64,000 bases of DNA from a virus (lineage: Duplodnaviria > Heunggongvirae > Uroviricota > Caudoviricetes). The stretch is taken from the IMG/VR virus record IMGVR_UViG_2778261505_000002, one strand, 5' to 3'. Shown one piece after another: positions 2,639 through 54,196 of this stretch. The position numbers and the translations under genes are program-made. Below the pieces are notes generated by a model. It was not told where the DNA came from and did no database searches. It worked only from the letters and a program-made list of their open reading frames with translations. The first letter of the stretch is position 1, and each line of letters opens with the position of its first letter.

Positions 2639-2754
2639 TCTTTTAAAAGACACCACCAGAACAACTCCCTTCCGTTTCCACTTCCAAAAACTGCCACCAG
2701 TCGCTATCATCCGCTCATTGTGATAAGTAAGTAACTACCTACCAGGTGAGCCAC

Positions 2755-3495
2755 ATGAGCCAAATCTTTTTCGATACCATCGACAACGACCAGTACGACT
2801 TCATGACAGAGTGGAATACCGCTGTTATGGACAAGTGGGTCGCTGAAAACATTGGTTTGTCGCGCTGTAAAGACGAGGCTGAACTCTTCGAGACGAAGTG
2901 GTTTGATTACCGCGACATGCATCCTCTCATGGCCACCTGTCTTTTTACGGAGGCATACAAACGTCAGTACTCAAATATCATGCTGACGCACGGTCGCGAA
3001 CACTTTGAAACAGCTCCGTTCACCACCGGGTTAAAACGTCTGCCTTATCAGGAGTTGTCGACTGCCAATAAAACGTCGCTATGGAAAGCACGCCAGTTTG
3101 CGGATCGCTATTGCTGCTCATACGACTACTTTATCTCCACCGTTCTTTCCGCAGCTGCACGACGGCTGTGGGACAAGCTGCCGCGCCCACAGCATTTATG
3201 GCAGCCAGAACTGATTGAGATATTTGAAGAGAAATTAGCCAGACGCGCAACAACCCGTCTGGATGACTCTCTGGTTAGCTTTAAGCATATGGGAGACATG
3301 CAGTTCAACCCGATTCAGGAAAGCTATTTTGAGTGGATTCTGGAGCGTTTGCGCACCATCCCTCGCAGCAAGCGCATACGCGCAATTTTCTCCGCTATCT
3401 GGCTAATGGAAATCGTTCCAGAGCGCCTTATTTCCGCCCACTTTCCAGAAGAACTGGAAGAAGCACGGCGGTTTATTGATCCCCTATCTAATTAA
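2755..3495 (+). CDS. Hypothetical protein
   Basis: Track ORF 2746..3495 (GTG); ATG at 2755 after AGGTGAG; no recognisable motif. Confidence 0.45.
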   Translation: MSQIFFDTIDNDQYDFMTEWNTAVMDKWVAENIGLSRCKDEAELFETKWFDYRDMHPLMATCLFTEAYKRQYSNIMLTHGREHFETAPFTTGLKRLPYQELSTANKTSLWKARQFADRYCCSYDYFISTVLSAAARRLWDKLPRPQHLWQPELIEIFEEKLARRATTRLDDSLVSFKHMGDMQFNPIQESYFEWILERLRTIPRSKRIRAIFSAIWLMEIVPERLISAHFPEELEEARRFIDPLSN

Positions 3496-3538
3496 CTAAT
3501 ACTAGAAAACAATTTGTTTAAAAAACAAAGGAAAGCAC

Positions 3539-4879
3539 ATGACCGAACTTTGCCATACAGGACGCGGGCTGTCCGAAGAATTTGATGAAGATTTCCAGAA
3601 CAGACTGACGGCATATTTTTGTCGTGATCACGAGTTTCTTACTCGTGCGGGAGATCTGGTTGTGCCTAGCCAGTTTGCCAATGCGGCCAATGCCATATTG
3701 GTTAATATGGTTTCGGGCTATTACCGTATGTACAAGAGCGCGCCCTCTTCATCTGCAATTCTGGATATGCTTAAGCGTGCGAAACGCGATAAGACTATCC
3801 GTGAGGAACTATTCGCCGATGTTGTTGCTGCGTTTAAGCGCATCCTTGCAGAAAAATTGTCCGATACCTCGTACATGGTTGACCAGGTATCAACCTTCGC
3901 AAAAAGTGTAGCGTTTGATGATGCTCTGATTAAGGCTGCTGAACTGAAAGAGAAAGGCGACTTTCAGGGGGCGATGGCAATCATGGCCAAGGTTCAGCAG
4001 ATTGGATCGAACGAAGCGACCGGAATCTATGACTACTACACCTCCGCAAGTGAGCGATTGAAAGCGCGTGAATATGAGGCTTCAGAGGAGTATGTACCAA
4101 ACAGTATTACAACTGGACTCCCTCTTCTCGATAGGTTGCTGTACCAAAAAGGCTGGGCAAAGCGCGAAATGGTGCTCTTCATGGGGTTCGCTAAATCCGG
4201 TAAATCGACCGCAATGGGGGAGTTTTCCATAAACGCAACACTTGCTGGCTACAATGTTCTGTATCTCTCGCTGGAGGTTCACACCACCATTTTATCCGAC
4301 CGTTTTGATGCAAGATTGTCGGAGACGGAAATGTCCAAGTTGGTGGAACGGCGCGATGAAGTTCATCGTAAGTTGGCAGAGTTGGGAGCCTCTAAGGGGA
4401 TTGGTAGTTTGTGGGTTGTTGAGCGTCCGTCAGGAAGTATGTCACCGGCAGATCTGGACCGTATGCTTAACAGTATGAAAGCCAATGGCATGGTGCCTGA
4501 CATGGTTGTTGTCGACTACGCAGATTTGATGCGTGCCAGTTATGACCTTCGTGATGATCGCGCCAACATTCGTAGTATCTACACCGATTTACGTGCTCTT
4601 TATGACAAGCATAACGTTGCTGGGATCACGGCATCGCAGACAAACCGTGAAGGTGGCGCGTCAGAAGTTGCCACAATGATGCACGCTGCCGACAACATCG
4701 AAAAAGTACGTATTGCTGACCTGGTAATAACGATCAACAAAACCGAAGAAGAAGAAGCGAAAGGAGAGGCTCGTCTCTACTTTGCTGGTTCACGTAACCA
4801 GCAGGGAGGGATCAGCATTCGCGTTAAACAAAACCTCGAACAAATGCGCTTCATTGAGCGAATCTTAGACGTTACCTAA
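3539..4879 (+). CDS. DnaB-like replicative DNA helicase
   Basis: 446 aa; RecA-fold core with Walker A GFAKSGKST and Walker B-like VVVDYADLM; conserved upstream AAAGGAAAGCACATG start context. Confidence 0.8.
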   Translation: MTELCHTGRGLSEEFDEDFQNRLTAYFCRDHEFLTRAGDLVVPSQFANAANAILVNMVSGYYRMYKSAPSSSAILDMLKRAKRDKTIREELFADVVAAFKRILAEKLSDTSYMVDQVSTFAKSVAFDDALIKAAELKEKGDFQGAMAIMAKVQQIGSNEATGIYDYYTSASERLKAREYEASEEYVPNSITTGLPLLDRLLYQKGWAKREMVLFMGFAKSGKSTAMGEFSINATLAGYNVLYLSLEVHTTILSDRFDARLSETEMSKLVERRDEVHRKLAELGASKGIGSLWVVERPSGSMSPADLDRMLNSMKANGMVPDMVVVDYADLMRASYDLRDDRANIRSIYTDLRALYDKHNVAGITASQTNREGGASEVATMMHAADNIEKVRIADLVITINKTEEEEAKGEARLYFAGSRNQQGGISIRVKQNLEQMRFIERILDVT

Positions 4880-4960
4880 AAAATAAGCGTGGAGAACACC
4901 TCCACGCTTGATTCATTGGTGAAACAACTTTTCTTTTGCCAAACCACAAAAGAAAAACAC

Positions 4961-6142: not shown

Positions 6143-6217
6143 CAATCACCTTCAAAATAAGTAGATGATTACTTATCTTTCTGTGAGAATACTTTCATCT
6201 GTTAGCTAGGAGTTGGT

Positions 6218-7000: not shown

Positions 7001-7055
7001 GCTCTCAGTGTGTCGTTTTTTACGCAAATAATGATAGGTAAGCACAAGATTATTT

Positions 7056-8857: not shown

Positions 8858-9033
8858 TGCTCGGCTGGATGATTGCATTTTTAGCAGTTGGTTTTTTCAT
8901 AGGTATTGTGGTGATGTCCAGTTGCATCAATGACTACATTAAAAGCGGTGTTATAGAAAGACGCGGTCGTATTTATCGCATTGTAGAAATAACCAACACC
9001 CTGAAGGAGATTAAGGATGATCGTATTAAGTAA
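8854..9033 (+). CDS. Small membrane protein (59 aa, not in ORF track)
   Basis: ATG overlaps ligase stop (ATGA); MMLGWMIAFLAVGFFIGIVVM hydrophobic helix. Confidence 0.35.
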   Translation: MMLGWMIAFLAVGFFIGIVVMSSCINDYIKSGVIERRGRIYRIVEITNTLKEIKDDRIK

Positions 9034-9232
9034 ACGGGAGAAGGAAACGCTTCATGAAATCAGTAAGTGGCCGGAGTTCCCTGAGTACTGGAAGCCTAAA
9101 ACGCGAGCTAAGTTAGAGCGTTTAGGGTTGGTTGCAAACGTTTCTGAAACGTGGTGTTCGGCCAACTACCAGTTAACTGATAAAGGGAAAGTATTGCTAC
9201 AGCAATTAGTAGAATCAGGAGCGTTAAAATGA
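9017..9232 (+). CDS. Hypothetical protein
   Basis: 71-aa ORF with AAGGAG RBS 7 nt upstream. Confidence 0.4.
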   Translation: MIVLSKREKETLHEISKWPEFPEYWKPKTRAKLERLGLVANVSETWCSANYQLTDKGKVLLQQLVESGALK

Positions 9233-21764: not shown

Positions 21765-21881
21765 TTTTTGATAGATAATAAGTAAGTACTGATCTATCAT
21801 TTAACAGCTCGAAAGAGCCACGAATGAACGAAAGCCCAACGCGCATAGCGCCATCGGCCAAATCACAACAAGGAGAAACAC

Positions 21882-24183: not shown

Positions 24184-25257
24184 ATGGCAAAAGGAAAATC
24201 CGCACTGGCACTTGCTCTGAAAAAGAAAATCGGTAGCAACGACGAAATTCAGAAAGTAACTCATTGGATTGATACAGGCTTTCCACCGTTAAACAAAGCT
24301 ATTTCTGGTCGTTACGATGGCGGCTTCCCATGTGGTCGTATCGTCGAAGTATTCGGTCCTCCAAGTGCAGGGAAAACGTTCCTTGCAACAGCAGCGATGA
24401 TCTCCGCTCAAAAACAAGATGGTCTGGCGGTATTCCTCGATCATGAAAACAGTTTTGACGTTGGCCTGGCTGTCGCCAATGGCCTGAACGCAGATGAGGA
24501 TGACGGTCAGTGGGTATACAAGCAGCCTGACACCTTCGAAGACTCTGTAGAGTTGATCGGCACAATACTTAAATTGGTACGTGATGAAGAGCTTATCCCT
24601 GAATCAGCACCTATCTGTATCGTGGCTGACTCACTTGCGTCTATGGTTCCGAACTCCAAAGCCGAGAAGTTCGAAAAGATGGCTGAAGGCACTGCCAAAG
24701 ACAAAGATCAGCTAAACATGAACGACAATACGGCACTGGCTCGTGCGACAAGTGCGAACTTCCCTACTCTGGCTTTGTGGGCACGCAAATACAACGCCTG
24801 CATCATCTTCTTGAATCAGGTTCGCACAAAAATCGGTGTAATGTTTGGCGACCCTACTACGTCGCCAGGTGGAGATTCACCGAAGTTCTACGCTTCTGTA
24901 CGTATCCGTCTTGGTGCATCGGTGATGAAGGATGGTAAAGAGAAGATCGGCCAGGACGTAGGCGCAGAATGCATCAAAAACAAAGTTGCACCACCGTATG
25001 GCAAATGCACCTGGAAATTCTACTTCGATCCTACTCGTGGCCTCGACGTTATCGAATCGCTCGTCGAGTACATGCTGGAAGAAGGATACCTGCCAAAGAA
25101 CGCCAGCGGGCGAGTTGAAATTGGTGACAAGAAATACACCAAATCACAGATCGTCGAGATGTATCGGGAGAAGCCACTGGCTGAAATCATTGCGGCTTTG
25201 CAGGCAATCGACGACCGAAGAGCAAAAGACAACCCCACCGAGTCAGTAGAAGAGTAA
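24184..25257 (+). CDS. RecA/UvsX-like recombinase
   Basis: 357 aa; Walker A GPPSAGKTFLA in a RecA-fold core, Walker B-like CIVADSLAS. Confidence 0.85.
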   Translation: MAKGKSALALALKKKIGSNDEIQKVTHWIDTGFPPLNKAISGRYDGGFPCGRIVEVFGPPSAGKTFLATAAMISAQKQDGLAVFLDHENSFDVGLAVANGLNADEDDGQWVYKQPDTFEDSVELIGTILKLVRDEELIPESAPICIVADSLASMVPNSKAEKFEKMAEGTAKDKDQLNMNDNTALARATSANFPTLALWARKYNACIIFLNQVRTKIGVMFGDPTTSPGGDSPKFYASVRIRLGASVMKDGKEKIGQDVGAECIKNKVAPPYGKCTWKFYFDPTRGLDVIESLVEYMLEEGYLPKNASGRVEIGDKKYTKSQIVEMYREKPLAEIIAALQAIDDRRAKDNPTESVEE

Positions 25258-25261: not shown

Positions 25262-25287
25262 AAGGCGTCCACAGGACGCCTTTTTTA
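25262..25287 (+). terminator. Rho-independent terminator
   Basis: AAGGCGTCC-ACA-GGACGCCTT followed by TTTTTAT. Confidence 0.7.
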
Positions 25288-25349
25288 TCTCTTGAAAATA
25301 TATAAGTACTTACTTATTATTTTCGCATAACAACCACATAGGAAAACAC

Positions 25350-26384: not shown

Positions 26385-26402
26385 CTCTCATTAAGAAGAT
26401 CA

Positions 26403-26430
26403 GGCGTCCAGTTGGACGCCGTTTTATTCT
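26403..26430 (+). terminator. Rho-independent terminator
   Basis: GGCGTCCA-GTT-GGACGCC followed by GTTTTATTCT. Confidence 0.65.
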
Positions 26431-26479
26431 CGTTATTATCACACACAAGAAAACAATTTGTTAAAAGGTTAAGTTAATT

Positions 26480-27304
26480 ATGCCCAACCACATTACAAAC
26501 GAAATCCGAGTCATAGGTGGTACAAATAAACAACGCTTAGATTTCATACGTGCCATAACTAACAAAAAAGGTCTAATTGACTTTAATACCATTTGCAGAC
26601 GTCCGAAAAGTATAGAAATGGAAGAAAACAATCATATCAGGCGCATGGCCTCTGCAATGGCGGGCGAAACAGTTTACGACCACATGTTCGGTGAATTAAA
26701 AACTCCAGAACAGGTCGAATTAGCTATGCGTGAATCAGGAATGACACGCAAGGAAATTCGCAAAATCAAAGAGCAGGCTCTTATGCGGCTTGAGAATTAT
26801 CGTCGCTATGGCTATTACTCATGGTTTGACTGGTCGCGAGCTAATTGGGGAACAAAATGGAATGCCTACAACATCGAAATGCCCGTAAAACGTATCCCTA
26901 CACGTATTAAGTACGGCCATAATTTCCGCCATACACACGTTCGAGCATATGCAAAACGAATCTATAAAAAACGTCTTGCAAGACATGCCGCAACTGGTGG
27001 TGAGTTGGTGATTCGCTTTGAAACAGCATGGTCTATGCCAAAACCAATTTATCAGGCGATGGCTAGAAAGTTCCCGCACCTTGAGTTTGTAATACGTTAT
27101 GCAGACGAAGACTTCGGCAATAACTGCGGATTCATTTTACTTCGCAACGGCAAATGGGAATATGACTACATTGCACCGGCGAATAACGAACAATCGTCAG
27201 AAGAAAAAATCAAATGGTGCAAGTTCGCCTTTGAGTTATGTTGTCCTGGTATCACTCCACAAGAATACGGTCTAAATGAAAAATACGAATACGCCGGATA
27301 TTAA
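26480..27304 (+). CDS. Hypothetical protein
   Basis: 274-aa ORF; conserved WFDWSRANWGTKWNAY segment but no family I can name. Confidence 0.5.
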   Translation: MPNHITNEIRVIGGTNKQRLDFIRAITNKKGLIDFNTICRRPKSIEMEENNHIRRMASAMAGETVYDHMFGELKTPEQVELAMRESGMTRKEIRKIKEQALMRLENYRRYGYYSWFDWSRANWGTKWNAYNIEMPVKRIPTRIKYGHNFRHTHVRAYAKRIYKKRLARHAATGGELVIRFETAWSMPKPIYQAMARKFPHLEFVIRYADEDFGNNCGFILLRNGKWEYDYIAPANNEQSSEEKIKWCKFAFELCCPGITPQEYGLNEKYEYAGY

Positions 27305-28077
27305 TGCTTTACGCACGAAGCATAGAGGTTAAGAAGATGAAAAGAAAAATTGAAGAACCAAAAACGACCCTTAATAAACATGGGGAAAAAATTCAAACAC
27401 ACCCAGCGTTCGGTCTTGTGAAAACAAGCCGTGTTAGCACGACTGGCATTCGTCTATTTGATTCAGAACTGGAACATAGAGACTATATTGAAATAGGCGT
27501 TTACGAGGCTGAACTATCCTTGGATAATGAACGAACCCGGCCACAAAGGAGTAGCAATAGACGGCCTTTAGTTGAAATTAGACTTAGCCAGGCACAATGG
27601 GCTGCTATGGTTAGCAGTTTTGGTGTGGGCGAAGGTGTGCCATGCACTATTTCATATAAAACCATTGGCGACTCAATTAGAGTTCATGATATTGCCGAGC
27701 AAAAAAGTATTCGACAAAAATTCAACGATCAAATAAAGGCAGCTACGAATAGTGAGATTGATCGACTTAATCAGCAAGTATCAGAGCTAGGTGAGCTTGT
27801 GAAAAAAGGAAGAGCTGGAAAACGTGACCTTGAAGAACTATATAGAAAACTTGCATCTGCTGTAGCTAACCTTCCTGAAAATCTGTGCTTTGCTACCGAA
27901 TTAATGCAGGAGCAAATGGATGAAATTGTCTCATCTGGAAAGGCGGAGATTGAGGCGTATGTTGCAGGCACTGTTATGCGTAAAGGGTTAGCAGCATTAG
28001 GCACAGAATCATGCATTAACGATGCTCCTACTGTCTCTATCACCAAAATGGAAAGCGGTAAAGAATTACTGCCATAA
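27304..28077 (+). CDS. Hypothetical coiled-coil protein (start may be ATG 27337)
   Basis: 257-aa ORF; GAGG RBS precedes ATG 27337. Confidence 0.45.
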   Translation: MLYARSIEVKKMKRKIEEPKTTLNKHGEKIQTHPAFGLVKTSRVSTTGIRLFDSELEHRDYIEIGVYEAELSLDNERTRPQRSSNRRPLVEIRLSQAQWAAMVSSFGVGEGVPCTISYKTIGDSIRVHDIAEQKSIRQKFNDQIKAATNSEIDRLNQQVSELGELVKKGRAGKRDLEELYRKLASAVANLPENLCFATELMQEQMDEIVSSGKAEIEAYVAGTVMRKGLAALGTESCINDAPTVSITKMESGKELLP

Positions 28078-28097
28078 ATGTATCTGAGGTACTGACA

Positions 28098-28487
28098 ATG
28101 CTTTTAATTCAACCTGGGTTCGGTTTAAAGATAAAAAAAGGACATATGTTCGGTTTCAAAGAATCGAAACGAAAAATTCTGTCCATTAGATTGCCGTTTA
28201 TCACCATTCATTGGTTAAACAGAGAGTCAACCGATTATTGGTATAAATGTGCTCTGGCCGCATTTAACGACCCTGACTGGTTTATAGAAAACCACCATGC
28301 TGTTCGTCAGGCAAAGAGAAAAGCTAATACGACATACATGAAGGCGTATCGGAAGGCATGGAAAGAACACCGCGATCGATACCAAAAAGACATGGAGAAA
28401 CTTGAATTGGAAAATATGGATCTAAGAAGGAAGCTCGGTGAAGCACGGCGAGATATTGAAGCATATAAACGTCTTGTATCGGAGTGA
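28098..28487 (+). CDS. Hypothetical protein
   Basis: 129-aa ORF with GAGG RBS; basic coiled-coil C-terminus. Confidence 0.45.
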   Translation: MLLIQPGFGLKIKKGHMFGFKESKRKILSIRLPFITIHWLNRESTDYWYKCALAAFNDPDWFIENHHAVRQAKRKANTTYMKAYRKAWKEHRDRYQKDMEKLELENMDLRRKLGEARRDIEAYKRLVSE

Positions 28488-28489
28488 AT

Positions 28490-28624
28490 ATGACTTTACA
28501 TTGTTTTTTCAAAGGGCATTGCTTTTCACTATACAGAAACAGAAATAATAATGGGGCATTCTACATATGTAGTAAATGTGGGAGGACAAAATATCTTCCA
28601 GATGTCAAATTTGAAGGTCCTTGA
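28490..28624 (+). CDS. Small zinc-ribbon-like protein (44 aa, not in ORF track)
   Basis: HCFFKGHC...YICSKCG Cys pattern; ATG follows previous stop by 2 nt. Confidence 0.3.
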   Translation: MTLHCFFKGHCFSLYRNRNNNGAFYICSKCGRTKYLPDVKFEGP

Positions 28625-28650
28625 ATGTTTGCATTAAATGGGCAATACAG

Positions 28651-29067
28651 ATGATCACAACAGACTTTTCTAAATTAAGTGATTTTGAAATTAACAGACG
28701 AGTATGTGAGGCTTTAGATATGGAGGAGTATTTCTTCATACCTGATGACGAAGCAGATTTCGATTCGGAGATCCCCACTGACGAAAGAGGTCCTGTTTGG
28801 CAGACGTCAAAAAGGGATATTAATGGCTTCCGTGCTTCAAACGGAAATTGCTTCAATCCTTGCAACAACCCGGCGGACGCAAAGCCCATTATCGTAGAGA
28901 ACAGAATTGGCATTATTCCTGCGCCAGAAAATGGATTATGGAAGGCAGCGCATAGAAAGATTGGTAACGATAATACTCCATACCATATGACTCAAAATGT
29001 AAATCCACTCCGCGCCGCCATGATTGTCTTTCTGATGATGAAAGAAAGTGAGAGTTGTACCGATTAA
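28651..29067 (+). CDS. Hypothetical protein
   Basis: Track ORF 28621..29067 starts at TTG; first ATG at 28651. Confidence 0.45.
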   Translation: MITTDFSKLSDFEINRRVCEALDMEEYFFIPDDEADFDSEIPTDERGPVWQTSKRDINGFRASNGNCFNPCNNPADAKPIIVENRIGIIPAPENGLWKAAHRKIGNDNTPYHMTQNVNPLRAAMIVFLMMKESESCTD

Positions 29068-29366
29068 TGAATATATACGATTTTTTTAAAAAACCTAACA
29101 CATGTGTCAGAAAAGGGTATAAACCGTCAGTCATCGATTGCTGGTCGCTATCAGCAAATAATCTCAACAATGTATTCAAAATGCATTGGGAGTTTCTTTG
29201 TGAAGCGCGCGGCGTTCTCGACATGACAGTCAGAGAAGCAATTATCTGGATTCTTTGGTTTCCGGTAAGAACATTTATGACTCTGACGTACCCATTTACC
29301 TTCTGGATTTGGGGAACCGTCCTTTATTTCATATTAAAAGGAGAAGTAAAACATGGCAGCAATTAA
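29067..29366 (+). CDS. Hypothetical membrane protein
   Basis: Track ORF 29055..29366 (TTG); ATG at 29067 overlaps previous stop; hydrophobic Trp/Phe-rich C-terminus. Confidence 0.4.
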   Translation: MNIYDFFKKPNTCVRKGYKPSVIDCWSLSANNLNNVFKMHWEFLCEARGVLDMTVREAIIWILWFPVRTFMTLTYPFTFWIWGTVLYFILKGEVKHGSN

Positions 29367-30109: not shown

Positions 30110-30148
30110 GTTTACAGTAAAGTTTATATAAGTTAGTATCTACCTATC

Positions 30149-30328
30149 ATGAAGATTTTTATTGAATACTTGTTACTCATCGTTTCAATAGCTTTTGTCA
30201 TCGACTGCATTTTCACTGGTGTCATTCGTAAAGTCTTTTCCCCGGTGCACGACGTAGTCATAAACGCTTTGGCTATCGTGCTCGTATTTAATTCAGCATT
30301 TGATGTAATCAAAGAGGTGGCAGCATGA
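30149..30328 (+). CDS. Small membrane protein (59 aa, not in ORF track; weak)
   Basis: Hydrophobic ORF MKIFIEYLLLIVSIAFVIDCIF; no clear RBS; start abuts a palindromic-motif copy. Confidence 0.3.
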   Translation: MKIFIEYLLLIVSIAFVIDCIFTGVIRKVFSPVHDVVINALAIVLVFNSAFDVIKEVAA

Positions 30329-30660: not shown

Positions 30661-30872
30661 TGGCATTAACACTGGCAGGTCTGGAAATCGAGAAAACAAG
30701 CGGCTACTGGCGTGCTAAGGGTTTCAAGCAGCCTGGCATTCTTGAGCGTCTGGAACGTGAAGATGGGTATATCGTCCACCAGCGGCGTGAATGGCGTATG
30801 TACGATCCAGAAACAGGAAAACTGACTACAAAAGCCGGAACACTTTGGGGTCTGTTAAAGAAAATACACTAA
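30660..30872 (+). CDS. Hypothetical protein
   Basis: 70-aa ORF, start overlaps previous stop. Confidence 0.4.
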   Translation: MALTLAGLEIEKTSGYWRAKGFKQPGILERLEREDGYIVHQRREWRMYDPETGKLTTKAGTLWGLLKKIH

Positions 30873-30918
30873 ATGCAAACTGACTGCGGAACGTGCCGCA
30901 GTCATATTTCATAGTCGT

Positions 30919-31452
30919 CACCGCTGACAGCATACACAATCAACTACCGCTGATAGCATATCGAGAGTCTATCTCACCGCTCACAGCATACATTACTCGA
31001 TTTTTTACCGCTGACAGCATACTTAAGAAATTGCATGAATAATGTGTCCCGGTATGGGTATAACCAGAACAAAATTACCGCTGGCAGCATACGAATGTCT
31101 GACATATACCATTAATTACCGCTGATAGCATATCCAAACAAAAATTCCTCAATAAAACACCGCTGACAGCATACATTCTATCAGAGAGTAGCAGGCAATA
31201 AATGCCTTTCACTACAAGCAATCAGCGCAATAGCAATAGAATGTTAGTGAGCGCAAACCTATATGGAATGCACTCTTCGAGGTTAGTAACCACTGGGGAG
31301 GTATGACAGAGCATTGAGTGGTGATAGATGATTTACCGCTCACAGCATACGTTCATCTCACTATACCGCTGGTAGCATATCTTTAACCGTTCACAGCATA
31401 CTTTTCAGAAAAATAGCCGCTGATAGCATACATTTCACCGCTGACAGCATAT
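30919..31452. repeat. Iteron array (about 12 copies of ~17-bp repeat ACCGCTGACAGCATAC) downstream of repA
   Basis: Copies counted by eye with minor variants (CTGATAGCATAT, CTCACAGCATAC, CTGGCAGCATAC); irregular spacing with a ~150-bp gap between copies 7 and 8. Confidence 0.8.
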
Positions 31453-32546
31453 CAAAGCAGTTTGAGACTATTGGAAAGGATCTCAATCATCTTGATATTT
31501 TCAGGCGTCAAATTCTGCGAAAGTTCGGTTATCTTGTTGATAATGTTCTGTTTGGCATCAATTTCCCCAGCTTTCTCATCTGGTTTTTTGGGTTCGATGT
31601 CTTCAGGTTTTGGCGGTGCGACTTTGAGTTTTGGATTGCGGCTGTGAATCTGGATATAGATCGACCGCCCACGCTTAATCTCGCTGTATTCGAGATAGCC
31701 CAAATCTTGGAGAGCTTTTAAGCCGTTACGTATAGTCTGATTCTGCGAGCTGACATTCCTGCTACTCAAATTGAGTCGCGCACGCAATCGAGCAAGCGAT
31801 ACCGGCGCAGGCTTGGTTGGAAGACTTTCGATGAAGGTGTACAGAGCCTGTGCTGTTTCTTTGCGTGGTAGCTTATTGATAACCTTTAACTGCAAAAGAA
31901 CCTTATGGTCAAAGCGATATAGTTCGGCCAGCTTCGGTTCTGCATAGAACACCACCGTATCTTTCTGCTCGTTGTAGTCCACGCTATTGATGAGGTGCAC
32001 CATCAGAAGCGAGATCTTGTTAGAGCCGTCGACGTTCTTTTCTTCATACGTTCTCTGGAAAGACAGAGTTGTACGCATGATCTTCAAAAGACTGTTTGTA
32101 AGCCGGTCGCGGAGTGTTTTGCGGATCTGTGACGATGGATAGCCACAAAACTTAGCAAATTTCGTGATACTTAACTCGACACGACCGTTAGGTTCGCCGT
32201 ATTCTGCCAGCGAACGCACAACGCCCACCCACGTTTTGAAATCATGATCCATGTCGAGACGAGGACCGGTTATCTTGATATCGGAATAGCCTTCAGAACG
32301 GGCTACTTCGAGCTGGACAAGCTCCTTTGAAGCATCGATCTCATTTGGCTTGTTACGTTTACTGTATTTTGTTCCCTTAAGCGTGGGGACGAACAACCCC
32401 AGTCGCATCAACGCAATTGGTTGGACTGTATTGTTGCTATTAGGGACAAGTTCCCCTGTGTACAATTCAAGGGAACCTTCTTCAAAGTTGTCGATGTTAT
32501 CTTCTACTTCTTTGTTATTTTTACCTTTTTTATTTTTTGTGGACAT
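31452..32546 (-). CDS. repA: Iteron-binding replication initiator RepA
   Basis: 364 aa from Met at 32546 (track ORF extends into the upstream iterons); NSNNTVQPIALMRLGLFVP and IKITGPRLDMDHDFKTW segments match what I recall of P1/RepFIB-type RepA; flanked by iteron arrays. Confidence 0.8.
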   Translation of the reverse strand: MSTKNKKGKNNKEVEDNIDNFEEGSLELYTGELVPNSNNTVQPIALMRLGLFVPTLKGTKYSKRNKPNEIDASKELVQLEVARSEGYSDIKITGPRLDMDHDFKTWVGVVRSLAEYGEPNGRVELSITKFAKFCGYPSSQIRKTLRDRLTNSLLKIMRTTLSFQRTYEEKNVDGSNKISLLMVHLINSVDYNEQKDTVVFYAEPKLAELYRFDHKVLLQLKVINKLPRKETAQALYTFIESLPTKPAPVSLARLRARLNLSSRNVSSQNQTIRNGLKALQDLGYLEYSEIKRGRSIYIQIHSRNPKLKVAPPKPEDIEPKKPDEKAGEIDAKQNIINKITELSQNLTPENIKMIEILSNSLKLL

Positions 32547-32565
32547 GTGGACACCTTTGTCATTC

Positions 32566-32668
32566 AACCGCTGACAGCATACTTGATTTGCCGCTGACAG
32601 AATACCAAAAACAGTTGGCAGCATACGGTGAACCGCTGACAGACTATCAATTACCGCTGACAGCATAC
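32566..32668. repeat. Origin-side iterons (5 copies) upstream of repA
   Basis: Same CCGCTGACAGCATAC repeat family, five copies within ~100 bp immediately 5' of repA. Confidence 0.75.
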
Positions 32669-33512: not shown

Positions 33513-33766
33513 CCCTCCAGATCGTATATTGGCGTAGATAGAATCTACGCCTCCTCAAAATAGCTCTCATAGCGTTCTACAGTGATCCTGTCTTATTTTT
33601 AGTCATACAGACAAGCAAAGTTGCGCCACAATAAATAGGTATATACTTACTTATAAATTTTGTATATTAAGACGCTCGTTTCATTCCTAACATACCGTTA
33701 TGCATAGTTGTTTACCTTCTCATTGCTCTTAAAATTTGTATCAAAATAACCACAAAGGAAAAACAC

Positions 33767-38310: not shown

Positions 38311-38344
38311 TTTCATTGATAGGTAAGTACTTATCTATTAACAT

Positions 38345-38375
38345 GGGCCACTATATTTAGTGGCCCTCTTTATTT
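38345..38375 (+). terminator. Rho-independent terminator
   Basis: GGGCCACTA-TATT-TAGTGGCCC followed by TCTTTATTT. Confidence 0.6.
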
Positions 38376-42895: not shown

Positions 42896-42964
42896 TTGTA
42901 GGTAGTTATCTATCTGTGTATATTGCGCTGGCGCGTTAAATTTCTGAAACAACTATTCGTTTTT

Positions 42965-42990
42965 GGTGGCCTATGGCCACCATTTTTTTA
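42965..42990 (+). terminator. Rho-independent terminator
   Basis: GGTGGCC-TAT-GGCCACC followed by TTTTTTT. Confidence 0.7.
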
Positions 42991-43039
42991 TCTGTCTGGT
43001 CTTGTTCTCTCAATAAATGTAAACTCACGCAATGAATAA

Positions 43040-44170
43040 GTGGTTACTTATCTTTGTGAGGTTTTTGTGTCACTCCTTTTGAATCGTGAGCATACGAACG
43101 GTCAGGTAACAAACGCATCGTATGCAAAAGTTATTGAGACGGTGCTTAAAAGCGGCGTGCAGGCTGATGATCGCACAGGCACTGGTACTTTAAGCACCTG
43201 CTACGTTCCCTCTTACTACATGCTTACTGGTGGGACTGTGCCGCTTATTTCTGGAAAGGCGGTAAATCTTAAGCCACTGCTTGTCGAACTTGAGTGGTAT
43301 CTGAAAGGCACGGGCAACATCCAATTTCTCAAGGATAACGGCGTTAAGATTTGGGATGCATGGGCCGATGAGAATGGCGATTTGGGGCCGGTTTACGGTA
43401 AGCAGTGGCGTCGATGGGAAGATACCCGCATCGTGAGCCATAGTGAATATCTGAGCAAGATCGCTACTTTCCGTGAACGCGGGTACAAAGTCGAGGGATA
43501 CCTGGGTATCAGTGAAGATCGCGTAGTGCTGTCCCGTGAAATCGATCAGCTACAGCGTATTGTCGATACACTGCGCACGAACCCTACCGATCGTCGCATC
43601 ATGCTTAACGCATGGAACGTAGGCGAGCTTGAGGATATGAAACTGCCACCTTGCCACTTTGTCTTCTCTTTGTGGAGTCGTGAACTGGATTTTGAAACCC
43701 GTTTAACGATGGCAACTGACATTGGTCTTCAACACAGTCGCCTCGGTTACGAGTCTATCTACACCAAGATGCTATACGATCTGGAGATGGACGGCAGTGT
43801 TACTGAAACTGAACTGGATGAACTTGGAATCCCCAAACGCATCCTCAACTCCTGCCTCGTACAGCGTAGCGTAGACACTTTTGTTGGTATGCCATTCAAT
43901 ATTGCTGGCTATGGCATTCTCACTCATTTTCTCGCGAAGATTACGGGTCACATGGCCGGTGCATTTGTGCATTTTGGCTTTGACGTGCATTTGTACAACA
44001 ACCACATGGAAGGTGTGTGTGAGCTAATGCAACGACAGGCTCCAGAGCATTCAGATCCGGTCGTTATATTCCCTAATGAATGGTCTGAGCTGGATGATTT
44101 CAAATGGGACGAGATTCTTATTCTTGGCTATGCCCCTCTACCGTGGATCAAGGTTCCAGTGGCGGTGTGA
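43040..44170 (+). CDS. thyA: Thymidylate synthase (ThyA family) with two internal insertions; start uncertain
   Basis: DRTGTGTLS, WADENGDLGPVYGKQWR, RRIMLNAWNVGELEDMKLPPCH, MPFNIAGY; ~30-aa and ~50-aa insertions relative to E. coli ThyA; track start is GTG 43040, alternative GTG 43067. Confidence 0.85.
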   Translation: MVTYLCEVFVSLLLNREHTNGQVTNASYAKVIETVLKSGVQADDRTGTGTLSTCYVPSYYMLTGGTVPLISGKAVNLKPLLVELEWYLKGTGNIQFLKDNGVKIWDAWADENGDLGPVYGKQWRRWEDTRIVSHSEYLSKIATFRERGYKVEGYLGISEDRVVLSREIDQLQRIVDTLRTNPTDRRIMLNAWNVGELEDMKLPPCHFVFSLWSRELDFETRLTMATDIGLQHSRLGYESIYTKMLYDLEMDGSVTETELDELGIPKRILNSCLVQRSVDTFVGMPFNIAGYGILTHFLAKITGHMAGAFVHFGFDVHLYNNHMEGVCELMQRQAPEHSDPVVIFPNEWSELDDFKWDEILILGYAPLPWIKVPVAV

Positions 44171-46750: not shown

Positions 46751-46754
46751 AACA

Positions 46755-47718: not shown

Positions 47719-47901
47719 CGTTCCCCTACTTAAAATAAAGCCCATAGAGAGCTTTATAGTACTGGGTAAGCCAATCACATACCCAGCACCACAAAAACGC
47801 GCTAGAGAGCTTCTCGTTTGCATTTCTGGCGCGTTTTATTTGATTGCCAGACATAAAATCAAATGCAAAAATAGGTATATACTTACCTATCGAGAAAGAA
47901 G

Positions 47902-48495: not shown

Positions 48496-48527
48496 TTTGT
48501 TCTGGCGTCTGTAATTAGCCTGCTTCT

Positions 48528-48584
48528 GTATATATAAATAACTACATATTAATTATTAATATACGGAAGAAGGCTGTTTTGTAT
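48528..48584. repeat. Long hairpin element, copy 2 (homolog of 2584..2638)
   Basis: GCCTGCTTCTGTATATAT ... ATATACGGAAGAAGGC imperfect inverted repeat around an AT-rich loop; followed by GTTTTG. Confidence 0.6.
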
Positions 48585-49494: not shown

Positions 49495-50085
49495 ATGACG
49501 ACGAAGACACCAGCCCGATCGCAAGCAAAAACTCGCAAAAAAGCCAAAAACAAAAATTCCCCCCGCACCAATCCCACAACGCCTGTCGTAGAGTTCAATC
49601 CCCAGCTTAAAACCGTGAAAATCTTTAGTGATGGCTCTTGCCTTAAAAATCCGGGTGGCCCGGGCGGTTACGGTATCGTTCTCCAGTATCGTGGTGAGGA
49701 ACGCGAGTTCTCAGATGGTTTTCATAGCACCACCAATAACCGCATGGAGATGATGGGGGCACTTATCGGGCTGGAGCGTTTGAAATATCCATGCAACGTT
49801 ATTTTGCACTCTGATAGCCAGTATCTGAAAAACGGCATGACACAGTGGATGAAATGGTGGAAACGCAATGGATGGATGACTTCTGACAAAAAACCAGTAA
49901 AGAATGTTGATCTGTGGAAGCGTCTGGATGAGGCCGCAAGTCGACATAATGTTCGCTGGAAGTGGGTTAAAGGTCACGCCGGGCATCGTGAAAATGAAAT
50001 ATGTGATCGACTCGCGAAGATCGCAGCTTTTTCAGCAGCAGATATGCCTCACAAGAAAGATATTGGTTTTGTTTATAATAAATAG
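49495..50085 (+). CDS. Ribonuclease HI with basic N-terminal extension
   Basis: Start at ATG 49495 after CAGGAG (track ORF begins 49411 inside a GC-rich palindromic tract); RNase H core IFSDGSC...[28 protein letters not shown]. Confidence 0.8.
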
Positions 50086-50522
50086 TAAGTAAGTGTTTAC
50101 CTATCATTTTAAATCATGTATCTTATCGGCGTCAGGATGACAATGTGTCGGTAAGACACAGTTCCAGGATGGAACGAGAAAGGCGGCTGGCAATCGCCAG
50201 CCGCAACTCTTTCTGACACTGGATGGAGTCCACATGGCACGTCAAACCTATTTCACTTCTGTAACTAAACGTCCTCGTTCTTTACGTCAAATTTTGGCCG
50301 AATTATTTAGCGGTCGGGTTATGTCACGCCTTGATGAACTAGAGACTACCGTTCGGTTGCTGAATGAACGTTTAGATAATCAAGCGTCAGTTGTTGCGAA
50401 CGTGGGGGCGATTGTTGCCTCTGGTTCTTCACGCGAAGCGAAAAATGCACGGCCTTTAGTGAAGGAGAAAAACAACAAGGACAGTTCGAATGGAAAATTT
50501 TCAAAGAAAGAGGCTGAAACCA

Positions 50523-50926: not shown

Positions 50927-51019
50927 CGGCTGTTAGTGCATATGCATTGACCATCTCTGCGTAAGCTATTTATGTAATTAGAAAACAACTTGTTTTGACA
51001 AATAATAAAAGGAAAGCAC

Positions 51020-51603: not shown

Positions 51604-51604
51604 T

Positions 51605-51637
51605 GACAAGGGCCAAATGGCCCTTGTGTTTCGTTGA
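51605..51637 (+). terminator. Rho-independent terminator
   Basis: GACAAGGGCC-AAAT-GGCCCTTGTG followed by TTTCGTT. Confidence 0.7.
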
Positions 51638-51742
51638 CCGAAATAGAGAGTTTGCACCTTTACGTTTAGCTTGCTCCCCTTTTATGCCACATCACAATAA
51701 AGCCAATAAGAAAACAACTTGTTTAAGTATTAGGAAAAACAC

Positions 51743-52309: not shown

Positions 52310-52326
52310 TACAGCACCAGTCGACA

Positions 52327-52348
52327 GGGGGCGACAGCCCCCATTTTT
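52327..52348 (+). terminator. Rho-independent terminator
   Basis: GGGGGC-GACA-GCCCCC followed by ATTTTT. Confidence 0.65.
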
Positions 52349-52450
52349 ACGCCTTAAATCTGCTGTAACGCCTATGAATGCAGCTTTTATGCCTTTTCAA
52401 GTTTGCGATAATTACACCAATCAGAAAACAAATTATTTAATGGTGTAATT

Positions 52451-54136
52451 ATGAATACAGCCCTTTCCATCATCGACGATGCCAGCTCAAACACGGCTAT
52501 CGACTATCGTCAGGAAATGAATGTCATCCACGAAATCGTGGCCGAGTGCGAGAAAGAGATCGCCTTCATGTATCAGGTTCACGACTTCGTTTATGGAGAC
52601 GAACGCCACAACATGATTAATCGCCTGCTGAGACTAAACCATCGACCAGATGAAGATCGCTCGCGTTTAAATCGAGGTTGGTTGGATAAAGTCGATCTGG
52701 AATGGGTGAAACAGAATATTTGGGCCGAGTACTGGAGGAAGGTCACGGACATGACTAACGTTTTGCTGATCATGCCAGCTTCCCGTCGAGATGAGTGGCG
52801 CGAGCAGTTTATAGAGGGCAAACAGGAAGTCATCAAAACTGACAGAACCGGCTACCAGATGAAGGTTAAAGAGTTCGTTGGTGTACCGGAGTTCAAAGCA
52901 GAAACGGTCATACCCACGATGCTTAATTTGCTGAATGACAGGCACAAATATCTCTCTGAGCGCGTGTATGGCTTGTTTAAGGCGCTGAGTCCTGCGCACA
53001 AGACAAATAAGACAAACGGTTTCAGCGAGCGTCTGATAATCGCTGACTGCATTTCTGATTTCTGGCGGGACAGCGTTAGCGTGAACTATCGCAAAGAGGA
53101 CTACATCGACGATCTGCGTGTCTTGCTTCATTTCTTCGCGCACAAAGAATTTATTACCATCAACCGCACTGCTGAGGTGCTATCAGCTGCGTATCGAGCA
53201 AACGACTGCCAGACCGGTGACTGGATGAACGTCGATGGAAATCTGATGCGCGTGAAGATGTTCAAGAACGGCAACGTTCACTTTGAAATACATCCTGACG
53301 TGGCCTGGAAGTTGAATGAGGTGCTGGCTTACAGTATGCCTGCTGCAATCCCCGCGCCATGCCGAACTGCGCCAAAAACACGGGCACCAAAGCAGTTCGG
53401 GTTAATCCAGAAGACGATCTCCGTGCCGGTTCGCACTGCGCTTCGTGACGGGCGATTGAGCAAAGACAAAGGCGTATGGTACTTCTCTGATTCAGCTCTC
53501 CAGAAGTCGCAGGTGGAAGAGCTTGAGCGCACACTGAGCTTCATTGGCGGCGTGCAGGAGAAAAAGCACTGGCAGTTCCCGTATGACATCGGCCATACGC
53601 TAAATACGATTGTGGCTACCGGTTTAATACCGGATACAAAATCACACCAGTTCTACCCTACCCCACGCTTGATTGCTGAGTACGTTGCCAGAGCCACTGA
53701 ATTGAAGCCTGGTGAGAAGCTGCTGGAGCCTCAAGCCGGACGTGGGGATCTTCTGGCCTATATTAACGCCGATCTGGAAGATGTTACCTGCATAGAAATC
53801 GCACCTCTCTTCGCTGATATCCTGCGTGGAAAAGGGTATACGAACACGATTTGCTGCGACTTCATAAAGTGGTCTGAGGACAACGCAGGTTATCAGTTCG
53901 ACAAAATCGTTATGAACCCGCCGTACTCGCTTGGTCGTCATAGAGAGCACACGCTGGCTGCGCTGGGGCATCTGAAAGTCGGCGGGCGTCTTGTAGCAGT
54001 ATTGCCGGGCACTGCGCCAATACTGGACTGGATGACGATGGATAATTACGTTTATGCCAGAGGGAAGTCGTTTACCAACGAGTTTGAAGACACAGGGATC
54101 ACAGTCAGCGTATACGTTTTCAAACGCGTTAAATGA
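52451..54136 (+). CDS. Putative N6-adenine DNA methyltransferase with large N-terminal domain of unknown function
   Basis: 561 aa; C-terminal ~180 aa carry FYPTPR, SAM-binding-like LEPQAGRGDLL and catalytic NPPYS (gamma-class order); N-terminal ~380 aa unassigned. Confidence 0.6.
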   Translation: MNTALSIIDDASSNTAIDYRQEMNVIHEIVAECEKEIAFMYQVHDFVYGDERHNMINRLLRLNHRPDEDRSRLNRGWLDKVDLEWVKQNIWAEYWRKVTDMTNVLLIMPASRRDEWREQFIEGKQEVIKTDRTGYQMKVKEFVGVPEFKAETVIPTMLNLLNDRHKYLSERVYGLFKALSPAHKTNKTNGFSERLIIADCISDFWRDSVSVNYRKEDYIDDLRVLLHFFAHKEFITINRTAEVLSAAYRANDCQTGDWMNVDGNLMRVKMFKNGNVHFEIHPDVAWKLNEVLAYSMPAAIPAPCRTAPKTRAPKQFGLIQKTISVPVRTALRDGRLSKDKGVWYFSDSALQKSQVEELERTLSFIGGVQEKKHWQFPYDIGHTLNTIVATGLIPDTKSHQFYPTPRLIAEYVARATELKPGEKLLEPQAGRGDLLAYINADLEDVTCIEIAPLFADILRGKGYTNTICCDFIKWSEDNAGYQFDKIVMNPPYSLGRHREHTLAALGHLKVGGRLVAVLPGTAPILDWMTMDNYVYARGKSFTNEFEDTGITVSVYVFKRVK

Positions 54137-54196
54137 TAGGTAAATACTTACTTAGTTTATGTAAGAATGTAGTAACTAAACGATAAGAGAAAACAC

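Follow-up and report, generated by a model that had tools for sequence, protein, structure and literature searches.

A dispersed family of intergenic palindromes in an SSU5-like phage-plasmid and an XRE-type protein as its candidate ligand

A fixed palindrome between genes

The window, meaning the whole 64-kb stretch of DNA analysed, is from an SSU5-like E. coli phage-plasmid. It carries 12 strong and ~4 weak copies of one palindrome, together with the gene for a small XRE-family HTH protein (Table 1). An initial annotation had described a dispersed family of palindromic sites, and this family is real: all of the positions it listed carry the motif, and shuffled sequences give none. The spacer of 2-8 nt then placed between the half-sites is artefactual, as the element is a 22-bp palindrome, GATARGTAAGT/ACTTACYTATC, with one fixed centre (slash). 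Each half has TAAG-TAAG-T in tandem, and this produces apparent half-sites at several spacings. Palindromy of the consensus is perfect over 22 bp, or over 26 bp if the W flanks are included. The 22-26-bp site contains two TA.GTA blocks, 12 bp apart. The copy at 2721, formerly taken for a half-site, is a full site. The loop of the hairpin at 2585-2637 (ATAAGTAACTTAT) had been counted as a member but has only the outer half-sites, abutted (13 bits), and this hairpin is one of a separate three-copy hairpin family.

Scored by matches out of 22 to the palindrome GATAAGTAAGTACTTACTTATC, the strong sites reach 17-20, and the background tail stops at ~14-15. They score 17-29 bits with a leave-one-out position weight matrix, and the closest complete genome has 20 sites of at least 16 bits versus 0 in Markov-1 shuffles. 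When coding and intergenic frequencies are compared, as had been proposed, 12 of the 12 strong sites fall in intergenic DNA, which makes up 12.8% of the window (binomial P=2e-11). No fixed distance to the start codon is kept, the next start lying 0-128 nt away. Over the whole ~108-kb genome, ~25 intergenic gaps have a site. Early and late operons carry them alike, and outside the window they also occur in the late structural operon and the lysis region.

The offset of the site from promoter elements varies across copies and falls into three classes. In the first, the site lies within the spacer of a sigma-70 promoter (the 25297 copy); in the second, 2-5 nt separate its end from a conserved TGn extended -10 box downstream; in the third, it lies within an operon ahead of a terminator. 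Such variable geometry fits operators and roadblocks rather than a promoter element. The earlier suggestion of an element resembling the T4 late TATAAATA box is not borne out: the site is symmetric, it keeps no constant offset from start codons or -10-like hexamers, some copies are followed by a start codon after 9-15 nt or by a terminator hairpin at once, and both early and late operons have sites.

Table 1. Palindrome copies and the candidate regulator in the window
Feature	Position	Context
Strong site, GATAAGTAAGTAACTACCTACC, 26 bits	2722..2743	11 nt before c31-like gene upstream of helicase; no recognisable promoter there; orthologous sites in Cyrano, SSU5 and pJN2-26
Strong site	6156..6177	Gap between primase and c34-like gene; 4 nt on, conserved extended -10 TGTGAGAAT (6182-6190); downstream gene leaky in LF82 lysogen
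Strong site, GATAAGTATTTACTTACTTATC, best copy in window (20/22)	9678..9699	Followed by TGTATAAGAT (9705-9714); tRNA cluster downstream
Strong site	21777..21798	UvsY/SSB gap; overlaps promoter-like TAGATA-17-TATCAT (21772-21800)
Strong site	25297..25318	Fills spacer and -10 of near-consensus sigma-70 promoter TTGAAA-17-TATTAT (25292-25320); terminator 25262-25282 just before; membrane and stomatin genes downstream
Strong site	30127..30148	Abuts ATG of c60-like gene; overlaps TTTATA-16-TATCAT (30123-30150)
Strong site	33634..33655	ASCH/SbcD gap; 5 nt downstream, extended -10 TGTATATTA (33661-33669), kept as TGnCATAAT in SSU5 and pJN2-26
Strong site, 30 bits; in-operon, stoperator-like class	38318..38339	7 nt past RuvC stop; intrinsic terminator 38345-38366 directly after, then NrdA
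Strong site	43031..43052	MazG/ThyX gap, past terminator 42964-42982; then conserved TGTGAGGTT (43055-43063)
Strong site	47870..47891	10 nt before start codon of Dam-like methylase; a downstream -10 would not fit
Strong site	50084..50105	Overlaps RNase H stop codon; next gene 128 nt on
Strong site	54135..54156	Overlaps DUF4942 stop codon; then conserved extended -10 TGTAAGAAT (54160-54168)
Weak copy, 13 bits	7033..7054	Good left and poor right half; 1 nt on, c35-like gene
Weak copy, GATAGATAAGTACAAACTATTC, 14 bits	48910..48931	SSU5 counterpart stronger
Left half-site only, GATAAGTAACC	16194..16215	CobT/CobS gap; 2 bits as full site
Left half-site only	from 21312
Weak site, 8.5 bits	from 60195
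Putative autoregulatory operator, GGTAAGTGCTTACC	13538..13551	~30 nt upstream of XRE repressor gene; kept in pJN2-26
XRE-family HTH protein, CYRAN_45 orthologue, 128 aa	13123..13506 (- strand)	Candidate binder and prophage repressor

Conservation and symmetry of the site

Salmonella SSU5 and Klebsiella pJN2-26 keep the sites at orthologous gaps despite diverged flanks. More distant relatives have cognate variants, TATTAGTAAGCGCTTACTAATA in Acinetobacter (at least 30 copies) and TCAGTAAGTGTTTACTGA in Aeromonas (~30 copies), so that the consensus differs between the elements of Enterobacteria, Acinetobacter and Aeromonas; the latter two variants have the core AGTAAG-NN-YTTACT in common. Among 2.9 million viral contigs the exact motif is confined to SSU5-like contigs. 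A scan of 185,579 species genomes found the exact consensus as 13 scattered single copies in unrelated taxa and not in any enterobacterial record or chromosome. This distribution makes a host factor unlikely.

A dimeric regulator was one of the two original suggestions, and the form of the site upholds it. The palindrome is perfect, its halves deviate from consensus independently, no directional signal was found in the flanks of the copies, and there is no orientation bias. Orientation is unbiased even among copies of the Aeromonas variant, whose centre is asymmetric.

The candidate repressor and its rivals

The XRE-family regulator named in the initial annotation (there 13120..13536) is the best candidate for the binder. 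Its profile match to Pfam HTH_19 scores 19.7 bits, below the curated cut-off of 30.2, and it also matches phrog_8. An XRE-like HTH fold is seen in its AF2 model, for which Foldseek matches are weak and generic (best E 2.8e-3); the target-normalised TM-score of ~0.7 is limited to the HTH domain. The recognition helix is nearly invariant among alleles that are otherwise only 56-70% identical. Homologues are syntenic in the Acinetobacter (38% identity) and Aeromonas (33%) relatives, each with the variant site upstream. In the window, the corresponding site is the only perfect match to the pan-lineage 14-bp core RGTAAG-NN-CTTACY, but it is without the otherwise invariant T3/A20 and scores 7 bits under the dispersed-site matrix.

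The protein is found in 961 plasmid records, essentially every plasmid-state relative; its genus counts are close to those of TerL in enterobacterial genera, with 123 versus 197 in Acinetobacter. Only the lytic SSU5 is without the gene, which is deleted. SSU5 is a deletion derivative of plasmids with which it shares ~99% identity along the first 61% of the probed region, after which the match breaks off. The phyletic pattern is also compatible with two ParB_N proteins and the wHTH protein c123, all encoded outside the window. Expression separates the four, which are the DNA-binding candidates conserved in all lineages. In the S1 table of PMC9928086, which covers the Cyrano orthologues in the LF82 lysogen and in macrophage samples, the XRE gene alone is expressed in the lysogen (~96 vs background ~10), and the ParB-like protein is at the floor and c123 at background.

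We consider it somewhat better than an even chance that the palindromes are sites for a dimeric protein encoded by the element, most likely this XRE-type repressor, which would bind and repress there. In the plasmid (lysogenic) state, the repressor would sit on the sites across the genome. Where a site covers the sigma-70 spacer and -10, or the -35 region of an extended -10 promoter, initiation would be blocked, as at an operator. In the short gaps of long operons, often just before a terminator, bound protein would act in the manner of a stoperator as a roadblock to read-through. Acting jointly, the sites would silence genes for replication, recombination, nucleotide metabolism, structure and lysis, and loss of the repressor would derepress all of these units simultaneously. 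Induction would be SOS-linked, because Cyrano is ciprofloxacin-inducible. If this is true, one small repressor silences a whole ~100-kb virus during its plasmid life.

Expression at the Cyrano orthologue of the 25297 site, silent in the lysogen, is up by 3.6 log2 at 6 h in macrophages, a ~12-fold rise relative to the upstream neighbour under partial induction; that at the orthologue of the 30127 site is likewise silent and jumps by 3.65 log2 in MB6. The drop in lysogen RNA across site-containing gaps, measured on values mostly close to the detection floor, weakens with control for gap size and is significant in one of five conditions. In the macrophage sample, repressor mRNA goes up together with the ‘derepressed’ genes, and a mixed population is needed to explain this. 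The major tail gene shows its jump at a site without a recognisable -35, which an activator would fit too.

Such an activator, acting in the lytic phase through a site that stands in for the -35 at middle and late promoters, much as in T4 (MotA box) or P1 (Lpa late promoters), is an unlikely alternative. Several sites have their centre ~30 bp ahead of conserved extended -10 boxes lacking a -35, expression goes up at c11/c12, c55/c56 and c59/c60 under partial induction, and late genes with high expression (portal, scaffold, major tail, fibre and holin) have sites ahead of them. The candidates are the conserved wHTH protein c123, encoded upstream of TerS and found in all lineages, and a 71-aa wHTH protein at 9017-9232, which is not conserved in the Acinetobacter relative although the motif is kept there. 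Yet the geometry is not fixed: one site lies within the 17-bp spacer of a near-consensus promoter, where activators do not bind, and others leave 0-15 nt to a start codon or have a terminator immediately after them. No directionality is seen in the motif, and its use for early and late genes together argues against control of a temporal class.

The two ParB_N-domain proteins offer a less probable reading, in which the sites are parS- or OB-like targets of a KorB-like global regulator or serve genome condensation or partition. KorB and ParB are known to use dispersed palindromes of 13-16 bp. Both proteins are conserved in four of four lineages, and in Cyrano, pJN2-26, Acinetobacter and Aeromonas the first ParB-like gene has a good site 16-18 nt ahead of it. 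However, both have only the ParB N-terminal domain, with no HTH detected by profile search, and they are at floor or background level in the lysogen, the very state that requires partition and silencing. Their genes head an operon running on into terminase and structural genes, which suggests a role in the lytic cycle, and the ParA partner gene is elsewhere on the element, without an adjacent strong site.

It is very improbable that the palindromes act as RNA or extruded-DNA hairpins, whether as weak terminators, RNase III or other processing sites, mRNA stabilisers or a selfish REP/MITE-like repeat. The perfect consensus would form an 11-bp stem of -9.8 kcal/mol, and sites do occur directly past stop codons, often with T-rich sequence next. 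Mismatches in the arms are nevertheless independent and without compensatory changes: symmetric positions show no covariation (468 paired vs 476 expected, P=0.89), and the frequency of A·C mismatches at pair 5/18 is that predicted by chance. Nor do real sites show extra RNA stability over column-permuted ones (-4.42 versus -4.37 kcal/mol). Independent halves, absent pairing covariation and the lack of extra stability indicate a dimeric DNA-binding protein rather than a hairpin. Across genomes it is sequence that is conserved and not structure, whereas genuine terminators beside the sites do have compensatory changes; copies at fixed orthologous positions are also unlike mobility. Binding of a host global regulator such as Fur is the least credible reading, for the GATAAG...CTTATC and outer GATAAT-like hexamers bear a superficial likeness to Fur-box hexamers, but their spacing is unlike that of a Fur box, enterobacterial chromosomes lack the exact consensus and this consensus shifts between the three host groups.

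Comparison with known systems

The closest analogues of the proposed system are the stoperators of mycobacteriophage L5 and the C1 operators of P1. In L5 (Cluster A), gp71 has >20 copies of its site genome-wide, some within promoters and others in the short gaps between genes of early and late operons (PMC9283540). The element resembles L5 in having many copies of one motif across the genome, in promoters and short intergenic gaps, early and late, and in that the candidate repressor, like gp71, is a small HTH protein. SSU5 would parallel D29, described in PMC5712189 as a lytic relative that keeps the sites after losing the repressor gene. L5 sites are 13-bp, asymmetric, monomer-bound and active in one orientation relative to transcription, whereas the sites here are 22-bp palindromes without orientation bias, implying that a dimer binds. 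Further differences are the Gram-negative hosts, the plasmid-prophage nature of the element and the unrelated repressor family, and both binding and the block to elongation are putative here.

P1 is itself a plasmid-prophage, in which a single master repressor, C1, has many operators around a ~90-100-kb genome, preceding replication, recombination and regulatory genes. Dispersed sites in a plasmid-prophage and a candidate single master repressor are shared with the present element, but P1 operators are an asymmetric 17-bp sequence instead of a palindrome, P1 late operons have a separate Lpa-dependent promoter motif where one motif here spans early and late, and C1 is unlike the 128-aa XRE-type candidate.

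In plasmid RK2, KorB, of the ParB family, represses globally from 12 dispersed OB palindromes at variable distances from promoters. Dispersed palindromes on a large plasmid with variable promoter distance are common to both, but KorB has a ParB HTH and is expressed in plasmid maintenance, whereas the ParB_N proteins here, in which no HTH was detected, are silent in the lysogen.

XRE-type regulators (434 repressor, SinR, the controller C proteins of R-M systems, HigA) act as dimers on dyad-symmetric sites of 14-20 bp and typically govern one or a few loci, whereas the site here is longer (22-26 bp) and present ~25 times. Their five-helix HTH domain matches the fold predicted for the candidate.

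Form and spread of the palindrome

The sites scattered between the genes of this E. coli phage-plasmid are copies of one palindrome of fixed length. The initial annotation described half-sites separated by a variable spacer of 2-8 nt. Every copy that it claimed does carry the motif, and its spacer model served as a starting point, but this was abandoned when all copies were found to align without gaps around a single fixed centre as a 22-bp palindrome, GATARGTAAGT|ACTTACYTATC. The apparent variation is explained by the TAAG-TAAG-T inside each half, which creates ATARGTA-like half-sites at several apparent spacings. Positions T3, T7, A16 and A20 are invariant (60 sites, three genomes), and A/T flanks stretch the palindrome weakly to 26 bp. 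In the window, 12 sites match at 17-20 of 22 positions and score 17-29 bits with a leave-one-out PWM; the background ends at 14-15 matches, leaving a clean tail. The enrichment between genes that had been proposed is borne out: intergenic DNA makes up 12.8% of the window and contains all 12 strong sites (P = 2e-11). Avoidance of half-site hexamers in coding DNA was not significant (7 against 11.6 in codon shuffles, p = 0.12). Maximal-order Markov k-mer over-representation was too insensitive and missed the motif; an order-2 expectation with 10-mers recovered it.

The window, which carries genes for partition, replication, recombination, nucleotide metabolism and accessory functions, almost all on the + strand, is 97-99% identical to the E. 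coli SSU5-like phage-plasmids CMS-2020a, Cyrano/pLF82 and PhiR41_1, and corresponds to ~28.7-92 kb of Cyrano. Identity falls to ~80% with Salmonella phage SSU5 and ~78% with Klebsiella phage-plasmids. A matrix trained only on the window sites found 20 sites at ≥16 bits and 26 at ≥13 bits in Cyrano, and Markov shuffles gave none at ≥16 bits. The sites outside the window fall in the TerL-portal, M-L, J-fibre and UvsW-ParB-like gaps, inside the portal gene at its 3' end, downstream of the major capsid gene, and upstream of the major tail and holin genes. Seven are in-operon sites of the late and lysis region; the motif is thus genome-wide and not limited to early genes. SSU5 and the Klebsiella element pJN2-26 have 24 sites each (≥12 bits), nearly all in orthologous gaps, and the surrounding intergenic DNA has diverged. 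All three genomes therefore have more than 20 dispersed copies of one site.

The exact consensus occurs at 39 loci in 2.9 million viral contigs, all but one of which align extensively with SSU5-like genomes. Among 185,579 species, each represented by one genome, there were 13 scattered single copies in unrelated taxa, which makes a host regulon unlikely and led us to reject a host-regulator box. Variants were found de novo by k-mer analysis in more distant relatives: TATTAGTAAGC joined to GCTTACTAATA in an Acinetobacter relative (TerL 59% identical; at least 30 copies) and TCAGTAAGTGTTTACTGA in an Aeromonas relative (TerL 53% identical; ~30 copies). They differ at positions 1, 4/19 and 11/12, and the core AGTAAG-NN-YTTACT is common to all lineages. 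It is very probable that some DNA-binding protein encoded by the element recognises the palindrome.

Does the symmetry serve a nucleic acid structure or a protein? Paired arm positions form 468 Watson-Crick pairs, where independent columns would give 476 (P = 0.89), a result unchanged when G·U pairs are allowed, and real sites are no more stable than column-permuted ones (-4.42 and -4.37 kcal/mol). The stem is A+T-rich and no consistent T-run follows it. In the G+C-rich terminator hairpins lying 3' of several sites, unlike in the palindromes themselves, compensatory base changes are seen from genome to genome. On the covariation and stability tests we reject an RNA or DNA hairpin, an intrinsic terminator or a REP-like role. 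Since the arms deviate without compensation while the sequence of each half-site is itself conserved, the pattern is that expected of a protein bound to DNA as a symmetric dimer, and the dimeric regulator site first suggested by the initial annotation gains support. The arms and 6-bp centre also resemble a tyrosine-recombinase core site, a reading rejected by reasoning because as many as 25 such sites would have a destabilising effect and because the sites persist in SSU5, which lacks the integrase.

Position relative to promoters and terminators

Some sites overlap promoter-like hexamers and others lie in short intergenic gaps within operons, early as well as late. Their geometry with respect to promoter signals is variable, falling into three classes (Table). 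In class I the site overlaps a promoter-like sequence; that at 25297 follows directly on a terminator and overlaps the best promoter match in its 20-kb stretch. A site within the 17-bp promoter spacer is a repressor position. A class II site ends 2-5 nt before an extended -10 box, and this box too is kept in SSU5 and pJN2-26. An activating role for the binder is, in our judgement, unlikely. Class III sites have no recognisable promoter and lie either 9-15 nt before a start codon or immediately ahead of a terminator. The alternative proposal of a phage-specific promoter element resembling the T4 late TATAAATA box, or of a sigma-70 element, is not supported: the motif is symmetric, its distance to -10-like hexamers and start codons is not fixed but ranges from 0 to 128 nt, and some copies directly precede terminators.

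Sites, promoter-like boxes and neighbouring features (window coordinates unless another genome is named)
Feature	Coordinates	Sequence or place	Remark
Class I, site 25297	25292-25320	site in spacer and -10 of TTGAAA-17-TATTAT	sigma-70 match
Class I, sites 21777 and 30127		similar to 25297	promoter-like overlap
Class II extended -10	6182	TGTGAGAAT	kept in SSU5, pJN2-26
Class II extended -10	54160	TGTAAGAAT	kept in SSU5, pJN2-26
Class II extended -10	33661	TGTATATTA	TGnCATAAT in relatives
Class II extended -10	43055	TGTGAGGTT	kept in SSU5, pJN2-26
Class II extended -10	9705	TGTATAAGAT	kept in SSU5, pJN2-26
Class III, near start codon	47870	before Dam-like methylase gene	
Class III, near start codon		TerL-portal gap	
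Class III, before terminator	38318		terminator 38345-38366
Class III, before terminator, late operon		after capsid gene; M-L; J-fibre; Tc1-tail	
Late-operon hairpins after palindromes	Cyrano L001 9039-9075, 15550-15590, 22469-22490		G+C-rich
XRE HTH protein	13123-13506 (-)		conserved candidate binder
Two ParB_N-domain proteins	outside window		conserved candidate binders
88-aa wHTH protein	outside window	upstream of TerS	conserved candidate binder
71-aa wHTH protein	9017-9232		
CYRAN_114	Cyrano L003 780-1301 (outside window)		FljA-like
Sigma-70-family protein	Acinetobacter plasmid NZ_CP016299 (L049) 30780-31445	between cobS-like gene and dnaE	
Region of the integrase-XRE-c46 module	9.7-14.0 kb		module lacking in SSU5 (compared region L004 ~41.8-42.8 kb)
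LexA box	11978-11993	29 nt upstream of integrase gene	TACTGTATATAAACACAGTA in pJN2-26
LexA box	61224-61239	19 nt before S24 (UmuD-like) peptidase gene	
~53-bp hairpins	2585-2637; 48520-48572; Cyrano L003 ~8343-end joined to L001 1-16	CTGCTTCYGTATATA...TATATACGGAAGCAG	three copies per genome
UvsY-SSB leader	~21800-21880	CTCGAAAGAGCCACGAA...GCGCATAGCGCC	conserved in three genomes
Four tRNA genes (Asn, Tyr, Thr, Ser)	10447-10997	downstream of strongest palindrome and promoter-like box 9678-9714	
Differences from Cyrano	31452-32666; 26400-29300; 55300-58500; 24184-25257		

Positions 1-60000 of the window have fewer sigma-70 promoter-like matches than dinucleotide shuffles, by a factor of 1.5-3 (10, 20 and 16 per 20 kb against ~30 expected), and about 5 of the 21 on the + strand overlap or abut palindromes. 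The late-operon hairpins show compensatory base changes among Cyrano, SSU5 and pJN2-26 and are therefore genuine structured elements, terminators or attenuators, within the structural operon, which implies a need for read-through control in late transcription.

In published RNA-seq data from lysogens, the transcript drop is larger across gaps with sites in three of five conditions (p = 0.025, 0.001 and 0.045); after matching for gap size it is significant in one of five, many values being at the floor and terminators lying beside some sites, so that the drop is only a hint. A clearer result is that the orthologues of c56 and c60, genes behind class I sites, are at the floor in LB and 3.6 log2 above their upstream neighbours in a macrophage 6 h sample, in which capsid and tail genes are also up. 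This fits strong promoters that are shut in lysogenic cells and become active in a subpopulation undergoing induction.

The XRE protein and other candidate binders

Comparison of the proteins conserved between the E. coli and Acinetobacter elements leaves only four plausible DNA binders (Table), all of which also have Aeromonas counterparts. The XRE gene alone among them is expressed in the LF82 (Cyrano) lysogen, at ~96 against a background of ~10 (RNA-seq, S1 table of PMC9928086). Its product, a 128-aa HTH protein, matches Pfam HTH_19 below the gathering score (E = 8e-4) and phrog_8 with E = 7e-12. The AF2 model has a confident five-helix HTH (mean pLDDT ~80-88 in the region covering residues 11-80), for which a fold search gave C.AhdI, 434 repressor and SinR (target-normalised TM 0.7-0.79); the model resembles dimeric palindrome binders, though these fold-search matches are generic. 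A sequence search of the repressor against the PDB found nothing.

Homologues occur in 961 PLSDB plasmids, with enterobacterial genus counts that closely follow those of TerL. In Acinetobacter there are 123 against 197 for TerL, a shortfall probably due to homologues at the E-value limit. In protein databases, all homologues on contigs long enough to judge are on contigs of ~100-116 kb. The Aeromonas homologue is 33% identical and adjoins a cobT-like gene as in other lineages. Across XRE alleles with only 56-70% overall identity the recognition helix (NNLSLIKSGK) hardly varies, which matches the unchanged operator consensus among enterobacterial elements. The window's only perfect match to the pan-lineage 14-bp core, GGTAAGTGCTTACC, lies ~30 nt upstream of the XRE gene and is conserved there in pJN2-26; variant sites are found upstream of the XRE homologues in Acinetobacter and Aeromonas too.

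A ParB-like binder would be in keeping with dispersed palindromic sites, which are present. The two ParB_N proteins have no HTH by Pfam, the gene for the first is at the detection floor in the lysogen, and that for the second, like the wHTH gene, is at background (PMC9928086, S1 table); we regard this alternative as rather improbable. The remaining candidates were set aside on conservation. Neither CYRAN_114 nor the 71-aa wHTH protein is conserved in the Acinetobacter relative, where the motif persists, and the phage sigma factor is confined to that relative, tblastn detecting no homologue in the E. coli element.

A proposed repressor network, SSU5 and neighbouring elements

On balance, and with some reservation, we favour the reading that the sites form a genome-wide operator and roadblock network served by a dimeric repressor that the element itself encodes. 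This is most probably the XRE protein, which would bind them, repress promoters and block elongation. Its candidacy as the immunity repressor at these sites is supported indirectly by expression in the lysogen, co-distribution with the element, absence from lytic SSU5 and the core site ahead of its own gene. The nearest known system is that of mycobacteriophage L5, whose repressor acts at operators and stoperators and for which a mix of promoter-overlapping and in-operon sites, as seen here, is described (PMC9283540). The L5-type site is asymmetric and oriented with transcription, whereas the sites here are perfect palindromes with symmetric flanks, and the Aeromonas variant has an asymmetric centre in mixed orientation. 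Being palindromic and orientation-free, these sites represent a variant of the L5 stoperator kind rather than a member of it.

SSU5 was obtained as a free phage and is without the integrase-XRE-c46 module. Contiguous coverage of the probed SSU5 region is found in none of the related plasmids: 822 of 822 carry extra DNA at the junction, and the best matches run at ~99% identity up to the junction and then break. Judged from these alignments, SSU5 seems to be a lytic phage that derives recently from a plasmid-prophage by deletion and has retained the sites. A parallel is D29, a lytic L5-like phage that has lost the repressor gene and likewise kept the sites (PMC5712189).

Two matches to the LexA box (CTGT-N8-ACAG) are found where 0.9 is expected, a count not significant by itself. 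The first is kept in pJN2-26 despite diverged flanks, and the integrase gene behind it is transcribed convergently into the XRE gene. This points to SOS-driven transcription toward the XRE gene as a possible trigger of induction.

Taken further, and only tentatively, the whole SSU5 supergroup of Enterobacteria, Acinetobacter and Aeromonas might be silenced by a symmetric stoperator-like network, in which one 128-aa XRE dimer at ~25-30 palindromes would block initiation and read-through over 100 kb, site and repressor co-evolving, with induction maybe occurring via the LexA-controlled integrase promoter. We found no description of the motif, or of lysis-lysogeny control in the SSU5 group, in the searchable literature. 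If true, such a network would be the first system of stoperator type beyond the actinobacteriophages, and would give a clinically important phage-plasmid family that bears antibiotic-resistance genes its first regulatory code. Elements of the SSU5/pHCM2/pKpn type are common (~800-1000 PLSDB records) in E. coli, Klebsiella, Salmonella, Enterobacter, Yersinia pestis (pMT1) and Acinetobacter, with resistance genes aboard. If confirmed, the single conserved operator and the candidate master repressor would offer a direct means of studying induction, immunity and copy-number control in the laboratory, and would allow promoters and transcription units to be predicted family-wide. They would also give a reason why SSU5 is lytic and bring Gram-negative plasmid-prophages under the stoperator concept, here with symmetric sites bound by a dimer.

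Several other elements accompany the palindromes. The long hairpin at 2585-2637, whose loop the initial annotation assigned to the palindrome, belongs to a separate family of ~53-bp hairpins with a variable A+T core. One copy precedes the c31/helicase unit, another follows the Dam-like gene and the third separates the wHTH gene from TerS. These are conserved in SSU5 and pJN2-26, each followed by a T-rich tail, and are possible strong bidirectional terminators, origins or pac-related sites. The conserved UvsY-SSB leader block, upstream of a gp32-like SSB gene, may be a translational autoregulation operator like that of T4 gp32. CYRAN_114, an FljA-like protein (PF03614, repressor of phase-1 flagellin) that also weakly resembles Hfq, is conserved in enterobacterial elements, and the Aeromonas relative has an Hfq homologue instead; a post-transcriptional layer, or interference with host flagellin, is possible. 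Two accessory blocks of the window are absent from or different in Cyrano. The window RepA is only 50% identical to that of Cyrano, which suggests a replicon swap, and RecA is 357 aa in the window against a 779-aa gene in Cyrano, suggesting an insertion or intein in the latter. Three tRNAs of the window cluster are present in Cyrano and one in SSU5.
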